The position numbers are program-made. 31,389 nucleotides of DNA from a virus (lineage: Duplodnaviria > Heunggongvirae > Uroviricota > Caudoviricetes): IMG/VR virus record IMGVR_UViG_2713896769_000025, one strand, 5' to 3'. Within the stretch, counting starts at the first letter, position 1. The number at the start of each line of letters is the position of its first letter. Below are positions 12,001-18,000 of this stretch, piece by piece.

Positions 12001-15000
12001 ATAAATCGTAAAGAAAACTGCAACACCTCGCGTGTAGCACCTTGTTAGCGAACTTTCGAAAGTACGAGTATTGTATGATTTCCAGCAGTTATCAATTTTA
12101 CGTATTAATCAGTGAATCAACAACTCGTCAGCAGACTCTCTTTGCTGTTGAATTTTTTGGAACGTGTATAGGGCAGAAATTTTTGTTTTGGGACATGGTT
12201 GGGACGCCGTAGTACATACGAACTCTGCCGAATAACGTATGATATTATTTTTTAATCTCTTGGAATACATTATAGAAACAGAATGCTCTTGGGCGATTTT
12301 TAGTGATTGTTTAAATAGCCCTGTCATGCAGTTAATGTGACGGCAACTACCACTAAAACAACTGATATTTAAAGATATTATTTCAGAGTCTGGCTCTATG
12401 GGGCATGTATGGGACACTCTCCGTCAACTGCTTATTGAGTAGTTCTATTTGCCCGATATTGTTATCTTTCATCCATGCTCCGTAAACGTTGAATACCATT
12501 TGTGCATTTGCATGGCCCATTTGGTTTGCTATGAAGCTTGGATTCGCTCCTGCCGATAATGCCCAGCTGGCATAAGTATGCCTAGACTGATAGGCTTTTC
12601 TGTGCCGCAGTCCTGCTCGCCTTAATGCAGATGCCCAGGAATCTCTGATGGAATCTGCTTTATAGTGGTGACCGACTTGCTGGCATTTTTTTACCAGTTG
12701 CGGATTAAAAACAAACGTGCATTCATGGCGTGCGGTGCGACCGAACTCCCGAAGCTTGACGTCAATTTGATACTGAGGGCCAAGTCTTGTCATTTCAGCC
12801 TGGCTTTTCAGGGCATCAACAGCTGGTTGAACAAGATGAATAACACGATCAGTTCCCGCTTCTGTTTTTGGTAGAGTGAACTCCCCGAGTTTTGTATAAT
12901 TACGACGGATAGTCATTGTTTTAGCTTTTAAATCAATATCCTCCCAGGCGAGAGATATTAGCTCACCGTGACGAATGCCTGTGTATACTGCTAAGGACCA
13001 CAGGTTTTTTGTTTGTTGATGGTGACAGGCATCAATAAAACGAATAAATTCGTCACGTGTGAGCGGATCTGGTTCTGTTCTGGATCTCTTTAATGGTGTC
13101 AGGCCGTTAAATGGGTTTGACACGATATAGCCGTTATCAGCCGCAAATTGAAACATTCCTGCAATTGTCGTCATGTAGTAATTAACCGTAACTACTGACC
13201 TCCCTTTAATCGGCGTTGTTTTTCCGTTAGAAAGATTATGATACCCGGTCAATAAATCTTTCCTGATAAACAGTAAATCTTCCTTTGTTACCGACGAAGC
13301 AAGACGTTTTTCCCCTATGCGAGGAAGCATGTTTCTCACCACGGATTGATACCGACTGAATGCATTACTTCCTATCTCAATTTTCTTAAGGTCCAACCAT
13401 TTTTCCGAAAGTGCCTTAACGGTTATCTCTCTTTTTCCCAGACCAAAGTGTTTCAGGTTAGGGGAATTAGGGAACTGCGCGGCGTAGTCGAAACTCCCCA
13501 TTCTGATTGCAAAACAAACAGAAGTGCGAAGCTCACCAGCGATCTTCCGGTTTTTGGCGGTGTCAGGAACACCGAGGTTTTCTCTGACACGTTTGCCATT
13601 ATAGTGAAACCATATACGGAGTGATCCTCCATGGTTTTCAACGCCTGTCGGGTATGATGCGTTACTCATAAAACCTCCCAGACGTCCAGGAGCATTAACA
13701 GGTTAACCGGAACTTGCATTTTTGGCACCTGGTTGTTTCTGGTTTTCGATCCATCGCATAATTTCTTCGATGTTGTACAGGCATTCACTGTAATGCCCCG
13801 GATCACCTTCTACAGCGTAATGGCGGTATTCTTTTCCCTGCATCCATGACTTTCTTCTGGCTCGCTCGATGGTGCCAGGCTTTAGCCCTGTTGATGCAAT
13901 GAGGACTCTCTCCGTACACCATTTGCTGGGGGTTATCTGATAGATGATTGTCTGCATGCCAACCTCATAAAACTTTCATCCACGGCAGTGGCACCACACT
14001 TCAAACATTCGCTTCACATCTTCTGTACAACACGGTGTTGTTTATGCAGCGAACAATTTTTACCGGGTAACCGGCACTGTCGGTATACAGTTGTCCCTGA
14101 TTAATCAGAGCGAACATTTTTTCTCCTGCTCTCTGAATAGTGAGAACTTCAGAGCCGTATGTTTGTAGCGGGTTCAATGCTGATAATTTCTGCTGAGATA
14201 AGCATCCCGGCAAGCCAGAGTTCCCCGGACAGGTCTTCATCCTGGCATATCAGTTCGCCAATATTAATGGTGGCCATGATATCCGTTTTCCCTGTGCGCT
14301 CATCCAGGACTTCTTCATAAGGCAGCGTTGCGTACAGGCTTTCAATAGCGCAATTGATAACATCCAGTCCGGTCAGATTGCCGCCGACAGTAACTTCGAA
14401 TGTTTCGCGGTATTCCCATAGTCCGAAAGTTAATCGAACGGTTTGTTTTGCCATGCGTCCGCACGACGTCAGATTCGGGTCATAGTTCATTATTTGCGGT
14501 TGAGTATTCTGGTTGTTCATCTGATTTTCCATTAACCCGGCGGTTTGCCGGGCGTGTAAGTTATTTAATCTGGATAAATGGTGTATTGGCACCACTGGTC
14601 ATGTATTGCGGCAGTGTACCGTTCCACTTGTTGATGGCTTCCAGCTCCATGACGCCAGGGTTCTGGCGCAGAGCTTCGCCGCGTAAACGAATGGCATCGG
14701 CTTCTGCCAGGGCTTTTGTTCGAATGGCATCAGCCTGTCCGGCAGCTTCTGCACGCAGCATGTTGGCCTCCGCTTCACGTTGCTTGACTTCCTGTTCGCG
14801 CTGCAGGGTTTTCTGGTTTGCCGTGACTTTGGCGTTAATGCTGTCGATAACGGTTGGCGGGTATTCCGGTTTACCTACATAAGAGAGGCTCATTACCTGA
14901 ACGCCGATGGGGGTCATCTCTTCCTGAATGTCTTTAAGTGCGGCATCCAGTAGTTCAGACTTGCCGCCGTCGATAAATTTGTCGGTGGTCATTTTGCTGG

Positions 15001-18000
15001 CCAGTCGATTGAGTGCGTCGGCGATCTTCTGGCGCAGGTCAGTGGCGGTAATGTCATCCACGCCTTTGCGGTAGGTCTGAAACACCGTGGTAACTTTGGA
15101 TGGATCAACTTTGTAGGCAACACCGATGTGATAGCCGATGGTTGTGCCGTCACTCATCTGGAAGCTGAACGGCTCATCGTAGGTCTTCATTTGTTTGAAG
15201 GTTGGGAAGATGTAAACTTCAGTATTCCAGCCAGTCCAGTAGCGACCAACACCGACCACCTCACCGACGCCTTTATCGTCGCCCAGTTTATTTACTTTGA
15301 TGCCAACATTACCGGGTTCAACGCGATCGCAGCCGACAAGGCCAATGGTCGGCAGAACAATGGCTAAAGCAAAAATAATTTTTTTCATTTTTTATCCTTA
15401 GTGAAAGAAAGACCCTTGTAAATGGCATAAATGCAGGGCGGGGTCAGAAACGCCAGTGCAAAGCCAGAAGTAACTGCTATCGTATCCTTCATGGATATAA
15501 GGAACGGAACGAGTAATCCGTAAATGCATGCGATAATTGCCAGTAAAATTACTATTGTGAAATACAGTCTCATTGGTATGTGGTATCCCGATATTTTTAA
15601 CTGACAGACAGCGCAATAAAGAGAATAATGATTTCTGTTATTGTCAGTACTGTGGCAAGGATTAAAAGCAGTTTTACTCTGCTTAATTCACGGTTGTTTT
15701 TCATATAAATGGTTAGTAAAAAACGGAAGAATTATATTCTTCTTAATATTTAATGTGTCACTGGCCTTCTGGCATACCATGAGTATTCAGGTCGTTAATC
15801 ATTTCATCCAGAAGGAGTTCAAGCCCTTCTCGCCCCATGTCTGAAACAATGAAACCTTTATCTGGGTATGTAATGAGCATTTTCTGATAAAGAAACAGCG
15901 CTCTACCCATTCCTTCTGCCTCGCCGTATTTTTGAATTAAATTCCATTCAATATACTGCTGTAAGGCAAACCGAATGGGGCCGGGATATATCGTCATAAC
16001 CCCATGCTTCCCGTTATATATTACGGCGCGATCTGTTGTTCCGTGTTCATTCGGGACATCAATTGTGCCGTTCTTGTCTTCTTCTTCGTTGATGAATGTC
16101 GTCACATACAACCATCGCCACTGGGCAACCTTCATCTCAACCGGAAGTTTTCCCAGTAATCCTGCTTCGTCAGCTTGCGCGAGACACTGAAGGATACGTA
16201 AACCTCGCACATTAGGAGTATCGAATTCTCCAGCATCCAGACGGCGTATGGCGTCGTGATAATCAATAGTCATACTGCCTGTTTGTATACCATTGGCTGT
16301 TGCTTCAGCCTGGAATTCAGCGTATTGCATGAAATTTATTCCTCATCTTCATCTGCTGGTGCAATAACGTCATATCCTGCCTTTTCTGCAATAAACAGGA
16401 ATGTTGAAAGATTTCCTACAAATTCATCGTCATGAACATGACGAATTAATATTACTTTCCCGTTTTTGATGGTCAGCAATACTCTGGTTTGTTCGTGTTC
16501 TGCTGTTTTCTGATGCATTATTATCTCCCGTATGCTTTACGCAGAAACAAGCAGGCAATATGCATGTGATTTTTCCCGTGTTGTGCAATAAGGCAGGCTG
16601 TTTTGTGTGATGCCTTATGTTTTATAAAAGTCATAATAAAACCTCCTGTGGATTAAGTGTGTGATAATCCCCGGCGATTAAGCCGTAATATAGTATCTGG
16701 AGATGACTTGTTCTATTTAACTGGATAGTTCTTTTTCAGCTGCTGCTTCAGCATAGCAACGTGCAAATTCAAGAACTTCATCACCTGTTCTTTTTATTGC
16801 GTCGTTGTCTGACATTTGTAATACGATAACTGCGCATAATAAATTATGGATATTGTTTGCAAAGGAATCCGGTGCCAGGCATAAGCCTTCATACTTATCA
16901 TGGATATTGCCAGTCATTGTTGCTGCTCCTTTGCTTCTGATTTTCCCGTTAACAACCACATCAGGTCACAATTAAGCGCACTGGCCAGTGGTACTATATG
17001 ATCAGCAGGAACTTCACAGATGCCGCATTCCCAGTCGTTTATGGGGTCACTGTAGGTATGAATCATGCGGGCAAGATCAGATTCGGTTAATCCCAGCTTT
17101 GTACGGGCGCTTTTGATGCGTGCGCCAATACTTTCCGCATGGACTTCAGTCGTATTTACACGAATAGCTGACTCGCTGTTTTTTTCACTTAGTAGAGAAA
17201 GCGGATCGCATCCCAGGACGTTTGCCAGGGGGATAAGCATGCTGATGGTTGGCTCGAACTCTCCACTCTCCCATTGCAGAATAATCTCTTCGTCAAGATC
17301 GAGTAGTCTGGCTAGTTCGGTAGTCGTCAAGCCGCAGGCTTCACGTTTGGTGCGTATGCAGGCTATCTTGTTGCCTGATCGGATAGAATGTTGTTGTTTT
17401 GTCGATGCGATCGCTAAAGCATATTCATGAGTAAATTCTAGCACATCAAACCCAACCTCTTTTAATCGCGTATCATCTAGGAGGTTGAAGGTGCGAACAG
17501 CACTGAGCAGGTTTGCGATGGTTAATGCAAAAGAATCGAGATCTAAATCATCACATAAAACCTTGTTGTAAGTATTGAGGCTACATGTTTTTGGTGTTGT
17601 TTGTAAGGCTTCCATATCATCACCATGCAATTCTAAGTTGAAGTTAATCAATATATAATTGATGGTGAGATATTATGTGTCAGGAAAACGACTGTCAATT
17701 AAAAATTGATAAACTTGATTTTTTTGTGATGGATGACCAATAATTTAATTTAAAATCAATAACTAACCAAATCTGTTGATATTGAATGGTACAGATGAGA
17801 TTACTTTTGACTGGATATAGAGCAGCGCCATTCCCTCTTTTTCGATGCTCCATGGCTGATAGTTGGGATTGTCTGATAAGACCATGATCTTGCTTCCAAT
17901 TTTTTGAAGTCGTTTGACGTAACATTCGCCATCAAAGCAAAATGCATAAATGCCATCGCCGTCAAAGTAAGTTACTGTTTTATCTAAAAACAGTAAGTCT

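Follow-up and report, generated by a model that had tools for sequence, protein, structure and literature searches.

The window, a stretch of 31,389 nucleotides from the virus record IMGVR_UViG_2713896769_000025 (Caudoviricetes), carries on its minus strand a two-gene module in which the gene for a 62-amino-acid predicted membrane hairpin (hereafter the partner) directly precedes and overlaps the gene for a 275-amino-acid lipoprotein of the SPFH/Band-7 family. Our best explanation is that the two proteins work together at the inner membrane with the SPFH domain on the periplasmic side, and that they would protect this membrane in the infected or lysogenic cell. We consider the architecture and the partnership of the pair to be highly probable, the shielding or exclusion role is put forward only tentatively, and the explanation as a whole, architecture and role together, is plausible and still somewhat doubtful. 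The features concerned are as follows.

15385-15573, minus strand: partner gene, 62 amino acids (open reading frame (ORF) call).
14561-15388, minus strand: SPFH/Band-7 lipoprotein gene, 275 amino acids (ORF call; Pfam, PHROG and AlphaFold2 (AF2)).
15385-15399, minus strand: coupling junction, an AAGGA Shine-Dalgarno sequence and an ATGA stop/start (read from the sequence).
15329-15388, minus strand: lipoprotein signal peptide and lipobox, residues 1-20 (LVGC; Cys20 codon at 15329-15331).
14765-15325, minus strand: SPFH (Band_7) alpha/beta domain, residues 22-208 (Pfam envelope; strands and helices of the AF2 model).
14663-14857, minus strand: single 65-residue helix rich in Ala, Glu and Arg, residues 178-242 (AF2).
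14535-14553, minus strand: GC-rich hairpin right after the SPFH stop codon (RNA fold, -14.1 kcal/mol, z=-2.7).

An earlier reading made from the sequence alone (hereafter the sequence-only reading) had described a small membrane protein gene followed by an SPFH lipoprotein gene with an ATGA overlap, and this description was borne out by the ORFs, the Band_7 domain and the lipobox. The ATGA at 15385-15388 is common to the stop codon of the partner and the start codon of the SPFH gene, whose AAGGA Shine-Dalgarno sequence (15395-15399) lies within the partner ORF, and from the overlap the two genes are probably translationally coupled. Both are included in the RefSeq annotation (WP_001242071.1 and WP_000720006.1). 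In all 80 close IMG/VR loci the partner ORF is retained directly ahead of the SPFH gene, with variation at the amino-acid level (21 distinct sequences) and a spacing of -4 in 70 loci and -20 in 10; elsewhere the overlap is 4 nucleotides in P88, Fraca and KpCHEMY26 and 20 nucleotides in RCS47 and Maja. The ORF pair at 14561-15573 is confirmed as real, far beyond chance.

The 275-amino-acid protein matches Pfam Band_7 (PF01145; 107.3 bits against a cut-off of 23.6, E=1.2e-30, residues 22-208) and PHROG 200, "lipoprotein" (E=1e-112). Its N-terminus reads MKKIIFALAIVLPTIGLVGC followed by DR, giving a lipobox with Cys20 and an Asp at +2, and agrees with the pattern that we used for a lipobox, [LVI][ASTVI][GAS]C at the end of the signal peptide. 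The lipobox Cys is invariant in alignment A1, which includes fused forms of the two proteins, and at least 90% conserved in alignment A2, and the Asp at +2 is found in 96 of the 101 close enterobacterial relatives with a parsed lipobox (of 120 relatives). Asp at +2 is the classical inner-membrane retention (Lol-avoidance) signal in E. coli. From the lipobox and the Asp+2 rule we infer that the SPFH protein is lipidated and retained in the inner membrane.

The AF2 model of this protein (117 sequences; predicted local distance difference test score 86.8) gave full-length Foldseek matches to HflK/C (E 6e-14), prohibitin, erlin, stomatin, flotillin and QmcA (of QmcA-YbbJ, rank 34), the first five with E values from 1e-8 to 6e-14, and all of these named matches have been solved as membrane-attached rings or cages. 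The long helix of residues 178-242 corresponds to the wall-forming coiled-coil helix of SPFH cages, and it is followed by a short helix and then by a conserved C-terminal motif, K-W-x-G-x-L-P, in which W255 and G257 are invariant and P260 is nearly so in the family alignments. By analogy with the homologues solved as cages, the phage protein may likewise assemble into a ring or cage. The only sequence match in the PDB was E. coli HflK, which is weak (E=1.4e-3) and aligns over HflK residues 182-305, and the NCBIfam scores fall far under their cut-offs (hflC, 22.8 bits against 134.4; hflK, 19.6 against 159.4). Because of this weak match and these scores, sequence comparison places the protein within the SPFH family and not among HflK/C orthologues. 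In public annotation, homologues are labelled "serine protease", "transposase fusion protein", "putative transposase", "peptidyl-tRNA hydrolase" or "mobile element protein", and none of these labels agrees with the domain content that we found.

HflK/HflC (PDB 7VHP/7VHQ, 7WI3 and 9CZ2, with FtsH) shares with the pair the full-length SPFH fold including the long wall helix, and its SPFH domain lies on the periplasmic face of the inner membrane, as is predicted for the pair. On the other hand, HflK/HflC has an N-terminal transmembrane anchor where the window protein has a lipobox signal peptide, and it is a hetero-oligomer of two larger paralogues (334 and 419 amino acids) whose client is FtsH, whereas the window has a single SPFH gene preceded by a gene for a 62-amino-acid hairpin. 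The likeness leads to an alternative explanation, in which a periplasmic SPFH ring would mimic HflK/C and capture or displace FtsH hexamers, shifting the turnover of FtsH substrates (CII/CIII-like regulators, membrane proteins and LpxC) in the phage's favour. HflK/HflC of E. coli are indeed the nearest solved relatives by sequence and fold, and the hflC and hflK models are the best NCBIfam matches, but this likeness is of the generic SPFH kind (16-18% identity; 22.8 bits against a cut-off of 134), and prohibitin, erlin and stomatin score about equally in the fold search. The predicted periplasmic orientation, as in HflK/C and unlike QmcA/YqiK, would suit the mimicry, as would the place of the gene in the early-left arm, where a CII-like regulator gene also lies. 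In lambda, the FtsH inhibitor cIII is encoded in the early-left arm. However, the module is common in virulent phages as well as in P2-like and P1-like ones, for which no dependence on FtsH-labile regulators is known, and the mimicry leaves the obligate hairpin partner without a role, so that we think it rather unlikely; if true, a connection between phage development and proteostasis of the host membrane would extend to phages other than lambda. An FtsH-type role has also been speculated about in phage genome papers (PMC8540360, PMC10269572).

The 62-amino-acid partner matches PHROG 1130, "membrane protein" (E=7e-23), and has no match in Pfam (E<=0.01), NCBIfam or PADLOC. Its hydrophobicity shows a strong stretch at about residues 3-27 and a weaker one at about residues 31-52, for which the mean Kyte-Doolittle value is estimated to be near 1.4, with no window above 1.6 listed; the two transmembrane (TM) helices are a prediction, the second being only moderately hydrophobic. 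Homologues in Enterobacteriaceae are 63-95% identical. The family motif is LLVPFLISMKDTIAVTSG, with P23, S27 and G37 conserved, and a profile (hidden Markov model) built from 25 partner sequences is characterised by a Tyr near the start of helix 1, the invariant Pro and Ser of P-x-L-I-S at its end, a short polar loop and a Gly in helix 2, with the loop consensus P-x-L-I-S…T…V..G. Summed over the 25 members, the segment ahead of helix 1 holds 44 Lys and Arg residues, the loop 9 and the segment behind helix 2 76, and by the positive-inside rule this distribution places both termini in the cytoplasm and the six-residue conserved loop in the periplasm. A two-helix hairpin with both termini cytoplasmic is thus a strongly supported prediction, and the annotators of KpCHEMY26 assigned the same topology to its partner protein.

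The partner defines a family of its own. When it and 13 relatives were compared with Pfam and NCBIfam, only chance-level matches to assorted small membrane proteins were obtained. It was considered as an NfeD relative and rejected, as NfeD is not among the 25 most frequent Pfam families (E<=1, 14 members), and at 62 amino acids there is no room for the NfeD soluble domain. It was also considered as a holin, for which the matches are at chance level and come from a single member each (SPP1 holin, E=0.17; Phage_holin_2, E=0.032); a class II holin fails by location as well, the pair lying in the early arm with no adjoining lysis gene.

The partnership is indicated by adjacency and by natural fusions. 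We searched a diverse set of 80 IMG/VR loci, whose SPFH proteins share 53-100% identity with the query P0318 (P0318 and the window protein share about 47%), with the partner profile, and among the 7001 ORFs exactly one was found in 77 of the 80 loci, always upstream on the same strand, and abutting or overlapping the SPFH gene in 55. Furthermore, of 142 full-length proteins among the 150 best representatives of the 50%-identity clusters, 18 (~13%) have the hairpin at the N-terminus, in frame with the SPFH domain. The order in these fusions is hairpin, basic linker, retained signal-like helix, Cys and SPFH domain, and AF2 models one of them, P0372, as three N-terminal helices plus the SPFH domain. 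Fusion and near-universal adjacency together are strong evidence that the two proteins act together physically, and a two-protein unit is strongly supported by these sequence comparisons. The fusion order is consistent only with an SPFH domain in the periplasm at the inner membrane, and the predicted periplasmic location is likewise strongly supported, while the invariant Cys suggests that the fused forms are still lipidated and cleaved.

The way in which parts of the pair are exchanged between phages also fits the fused forms. DNA identity of 86-92% between the window and the phages P88 and RCS47 spans SPFH residues 17-265, with breakpoints near residues 17 and 265, and the partner together with the signal-peptide codons has been swapped between the window, P88 and P1-like phages, the versions being 20-29% identical. 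Once SPFH identity falls below 80%, partner identity levels off at about 25%. Because they were swapped together while the DNA of the mature SPFH region was kept, hairpin and signal peptide appear to be exchanged as a single unit, in agreement with the three N-terminal helices of the fusions.

On these grounds we define the module as a hairpin encoded upstream of, or fused to, a lipobox SPFH gene of about 275-300 amino acids (PHROG 1130 plus PHROG 200); in the window, a P-x-L-I-S…T..V..G hairpin gene lies directly upstream of a lipobox SPFH gene. The window proteins are clear members of PHROG 200 and PHROG 1130 (the latter in the moron category), which are bioinformatic clusters with no assigned function, and the PHROG annotation omits the obligatory pairing and fusion of the two. 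What was already known is that these families are catalogued and have been noted in genome papers. What appears to be new here is that the hairpin is an obligate partner, that it also occurs fused to the SPFH protein, and that the architecture is that of a periplasmic lipoprotein; we found no description of these three features in the literature (not all journals were covered). A vague annotation thereby becomes a defined two-component module with a predicted topology, an obligate partner, fusion forms and a distribution, at a time when SPFH scaffolds (HflK/C, prohibitins, stomatins and flotillins) are a current topic of structural biology and the viral ones are marked "role unclear".

Loci that depart from the arrangement are informative about its limits. 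In two Shigella flexneri / E. coli loci (L005, 5027-6001, and L006) the SPFH gene appeared to stand alone, but the partner is in fact split off by an insertion of about 770 nucleotides exactly between the two genes; by its length and ORFs the insertion looks like IS1, and it uncouples the pair. Relatives at 28-30% identity, in which a TM anchor replaces the lipobox, lack the partner and mark the boundary of the family. Other small membrane genes occupy the partner position in Pseudomonas phage TL and Caulobacter phage phiCbK, and in PhiSH19 (Salmonella, Vi01-like; L194, 2432-2650, minus strand) an unannotated ORF for a 72-amino-acid two-helix protein abuts the start of an SPFH gene of a different subfamily. 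It seems that a small membrane protein gene generally precedes phage SPFH lipoprotein genes. A protein annotated as "superinfection exclusion protein" beside the SPFH gene of PhiSH19 was followed up as a functional lead and dropped, because the SPFH protein belongs to that other subfamily and its neighbour is small, acidic and soluble. Among 83 diverse loci there was no conserved third gene beyond lineage-specific neighbours, which are ribonucleotide reductase or ThyX (by sequence motifs only) in one phage group and DUF5658 in another. In the latter, a DUF5658 membrane gene precedes the partner (L195, 5454-5975; L196, 5429-5969) and is fused to it in L195 (173 amino acids), and DUF5658 may be a third component in this large-phage lineage.

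The sequence-only reading had likened the pair to chromosomal NfeD/YqiJ-SPFH operons. The gene order is indeed alike, since both QmcA-YbbJ (PDB 8Z5G) and YqiJ-YqiK combine an SPFH gene with a gene for a small polytopic membrane protein, but the window partner has no NfeD soluble domain or NfeD Pfam signal and consists of 62 amino acids and two helices. QmcA and YqiK face the cytoplasm. The window SPFH protein, in contrast, is a lipoprotein with a predicted periplasmic, that is opposite, orientation, and the resemblance is an analogy only. The same gene order, as in yqiJ-yqiK, and a chromosomal copy in Luteibacter could be taken to mean that the pair is a captured bacterial operon of the NfeD-SPFH type carried as neutral cargo with no phage-specific role. 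This is highly unlikely: the NfeD domain is missing from the partner, phages are overwhelmingly the carriers of the family in the sampled contexts, and the conservation of ORFs, overlap and motifs across very divergent phages argues for selection in phages.

The module is widespread. A match to 14561-15573 was found in 536 of 5426 complete E. coli genomes (~10%), at 419 chromosomal places and 199 on plasmids, and the plasmids listed (~95-98 kb) have the size of P1-like phage-plasmids. Relatives were detected by tblastn in 389 of 50,697 GenBank phage records, most frequently from Pseudomonas, Erwinia, Klebsiella, Escherichia, Burkholderia, Caulobacter and Salmonella, and the named hosts listed for these carriers are all Gram-negative. 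In IMG/VR, at least 426 relatives were confirmed (426-512 across scans), and an exhaustive search of representatives gave 206 clusters at E<1e-30. The same arrangement is seen in P2-like P88, HK97-like Fraca and P1-like phages (with the partner unannotated in the last), in phi1026b and Luteibacter loci, and in contigs of Salmonella, Pantoea, Kluyvera, Yersinia and Lelliottia, as well as in a Symbiopectobacterium contig in which the SPFH gene is truncated. Positions in the P2-like, P1-like and lambdoid backbones are unrelated, and one insertion of the module is found between tail genes, in the opposite orientation. Within one genus, the pair is present or absent among close relatives (PMC8540360).

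Virulent phages carry the pair as well: N4-like KpCHEMY26 between RNA polymerase subunit genes and dUTPase/replication genes, BcepF1-like Maja at the genome end beside other small genes, rV5-like 4MG between DNA ligase and exonuclease genes, and further a 168-kb T4-like contig, a 422-kb contig and other large phage contigs. Distant SPFH lipoprotein genes lie in the early region of Bruynoghevirus TL and between the DNA polymerase and ligase genes of Felix-O1-like phiEa104. From these settings the module is best described as an accessory function of early type that moves horizontally among phages of diderm bacteria and is not specific to prophages. The idea of a prophage cassette for lysogenic conversion, with which the sequence-only reading began, was accordingly too narrow, as the module also occurs in early/replication blocks of virulent phages and in at least one chromosomal site outside any prophage. 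The module is neither a speciality of Shiga toxin (Stx) phages nor a prophage invention.

The early or middle expression that gene position indicates in virulent phages would also suit a housekeeping role in the lytic cycle, where the cage would stabilise the energised inner membrane and serve an anti-defence or lysis-timing function, by delaying premature holin triggering or collapse of the proton-motive force or by countering membrane-permeabilising abortive-infection effectors. Such a role would go with the strong conservation of the SPFH scaffold, and SPFH and PspA-type scaffolds are reported to be tied to bacterial membrane stress. Counter-defence-type neighbours are seen in two large contigs (L022 and L198), yet these are 2 of about 20 contexts, the pair is never beside holin, endolysin or spanin genes among the annotated genomes examined, and its patchy, dispensable distribution speaks against a core lytic function. 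We regard this role, like the FtsH mimicry, as rather unlikely, though both are serious competitors of our preferred explanation.

A still less probable explanation is lysogenic conversion in the sense of virulence, in which the lysogen would make the lipoprotein and shed it in outer-membrane vesicles, where it would be an agonist of Toll-like receptors (TLR) 1/2 or in another way raise the fitness of the bacterium in its animal host. The gene is found in Stx2 prophages of O157, O145, O111 and O26 strains, and a perhaps related "HflK/C-like" prophage protein of 25-35 kDa from Pasteurella multocida, PM0222, is reported to be present in vesicles and to signal via TLR1/2, its deletion attenuating virulence in mice (PMC9872710). 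However, any lipoprotein is a TLR2 ligand, so that this finding is unspecific, the Asp at +2 predicts inner-membrane retention and not surface or vesicle exposure, and animal virulence cannot be what the module serves in phages that are obligately lytic and infect environmental bacteria. We consider this explanation very unlikely. For Stx-phage biology the pair is probably of minor importance, being generic cargo with no link to toxin production.

Our preferred explanation, the shielding complex, would work as follows. The two genes would encode two subunits of one inner-membrane complex, the hairpin having its ends in the cytoplasm and its conserved six-residue loop facing the periplasm, and the 275-amino-acid protein being exported, lipidated at Cys20 and held in the inner membrane by Asp+2 with its SPFH domain in the periplasm. 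In line with all full-length SPFH proteins of known structure, the SPFH protein would probably oligomerise by way of the long helix and the C-terminal motif, and the resulting ring or cage would fence off a membrane patch holding the hairpin partners. The overlapping stop and start codons would keep partner and SPFH protein in a roughly fixed proportion, and the pair would be transcribed with the early genes, which in the window are those of the leftward early arm. In the infected or lysogenic cell, the cage would then shield or stabilise the inner membrane against periplasmic insults, the prime candidate being genome entry of a superinfecting phage, so that the function would be of the exclusion type and not a toxin-like lysogenic conversion. 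We favour such a role because the module is accessory, early and found only in diderm hosts among the named hosts listed, and because it is placed where incoming phage genomes and pore-forming toxins act. A membrane-acting role, as the sequence-only reading had suggested, is a sensible function class.

The exclusion proteins T4 Imm and Sp, TP-J34 Ltp, T5 Llp and HK97 gp15 are early or lysogen-expressed, envelope-located and accessory, and one of them, Ltp, is a lipoprotein at the external side of the cytoplasmic membrane. The pair resembles them in being accessory and of the envelope, its exclusion activity being only putative; to our knowledge none of them is an SPFH protein, and we know of no sequence or fold kinship with the pair. 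A different parallel is FliL, in which an SPFH-like domain rings a membrane complex from the periplasmic side. FliL is unlike the window protein in being TM-anchored and part of the flagellar motor, and is not among the top fold matches. It is described as a scaffold of circumferentially positioned rings that is needed for stator activation (PMC8794807). If exclusion or counter-defence is indeed the function, the module would add a membrane-scaffold mechanism to phage-phage and phage-host conflict. Whether a periplasmic nanocage, that is, a lipid-anchored SPFH ring with its hairpin made early, acts as a general inner-membrane shield in phages of Gram-negative bacteria is a speculative extension that we hold no more than tentatively; such a nanocage might keep out the genomes of rival phages or pore-forming toxins, or counteract abortive-infection effectors that permeabilise the membrane, and would, if real, represent an undescribed membrane-level mechanism and the first assigned function of a viral SPFH protein.

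Several observations weigh against this explanation. The mature SPFH protein is strongly conserved, with about 40% identity across very different phages, and window positions 14594-15340 are 86-92% identical in DNA to P88 (L002) and RCS47 (L003); such conservation is unlike that of typical, fast-evolving exclusion proteins. The exclusion function for which the sequence-only reading had made the pair a candidate found no echo in PADLOC-DB v2, where neither protein matched a defence family at E<=0.01. In the literature, not all journals being covered, there was speculation only and no functional study of a phage SPFH lipoprotein or its partner, and phage genome papers call the role of the SPFH protein unclear (PMC8540360, PMC10269572). 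By the same literature, no structural or lysis role is known for the pair, widespread as it proved to be. Among more distant SPFH lipoproteins of phages, that of TL goes with a one-TM protein and that of phiCbK with a multi-TM protein, while no partner is recognisable in phiEa104 or in a crAss-like phage, and the hairpin is therefore not universal to phage SPFH proteins. The AF2 models are monomers from which no contact between partner and SPFH protein can be read, and the copy on the Luteibacter chromosome has no phage genes nearby. Finally, the promoter scan detected no sigma-70-like promoter directly upstream of the pair, the count not exceeding that in shuffled sequence.

The view of the pair as a moron with its own promoter and terminator was accordingly not supported by the promoter and terminator scans. 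The GC-rich hairpin at 14535-14553, which lies about 15 nucleotides before the annotated start of the next gene (DUF5406), was considered as a canonical intrinsic terminator and discarded, as it lacks a U-run and was not called by the terminator scan; its belonging to the module is uncertain. Two AT-rich hairpins upstream of the pair were not significant by RNA folding. The 184-nucleotide AT-rich gap (31% GC) upstream of the partner gene contains an ORF of 35 amino acids at 15597-15704 (minus strand) with one hydrophobic helix, which has no Shine-Dalgarno sequence, is absent from RefSeq and is probably not a gene.

In the window, as the sequence-only reading had it, the pair belongs to the early-left arm; it shares its strand with int and xis. 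Three further features describe its surroundings.

12383-13669: integrase.
17763-18482: ORF of 239 amino acids, at the position of an XRE-family regulator in an identical O111 prophage.
27512-28752: ORFs with the size and order of stxA and stxB (ORF call).

From the integrase, the gene order is excisionase, a DUF4222 remnant, the DUF5406 gene and then the pair, followed by a PHROG 1515 gene, two small ORFs, a CII-like helix-turn-helix regulator and the 239-amino-acid ORF, which from its position in the O111 prophage we read as the putative repressor. The pair is about 12 kb upstream of the stx genes, and no lysis gene adjoins it. It had been proposed to stand in place of the usual recombination genes; no Exo/Bet/Gam-type gene does lie between the repressor region and int, but this has no evidential content, the module being found at unrelated positions in P2-, P1-, HK97- and phiP27-like backbones. 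The pair region is 100% identical to phiP27-like Stx2 phages and is identical also in prophages of E. coli O111, O145, O157, O55 and O26 that lie beside a DUF72 gene, which we take to be yecE.

The longest ORF for the DUF5406 gene (14149-14595, minus strand) would begin with a GTG at 14595 and overlap the SPFH stop codon, whereas RefSeq places the start at an ATG at 14520 (123 amino acids). We favour the short form because of this RefSeq start and because Pfam and PHROG match the long form only from about residue 26-37 onwards. In RefSeq, the identical O111 prophage has a truncated DUF4222 pseudogene (~14001-14104, minus strand) and a frameshifted small PHROG 340-like gene (16336-16518, minus strand), which suggests some decay of the early-left arm.

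Three neighbourhoods elsewhere deserve mention. In the 168-kb T4-like metagenomic contig (L022, 6385-14037) the module lies amid genes for NADAR, Gad2 (PF26128), a phosphoribosyl-pyrophosphate-synthetase-like protein and NAPRTase, and in L198 (3082-8829) amid Tad2-like (weak), Mom and NAMPT genes; these two neighbourhoods hint at a possible accessory or anti-defence island. In P1-like RCS47 (3865-5396) the pair is located between upl and the tRNA-Met/ban region, where classical P1 presumably carries tciABC, suggesting that this is a site of cargo exchange.

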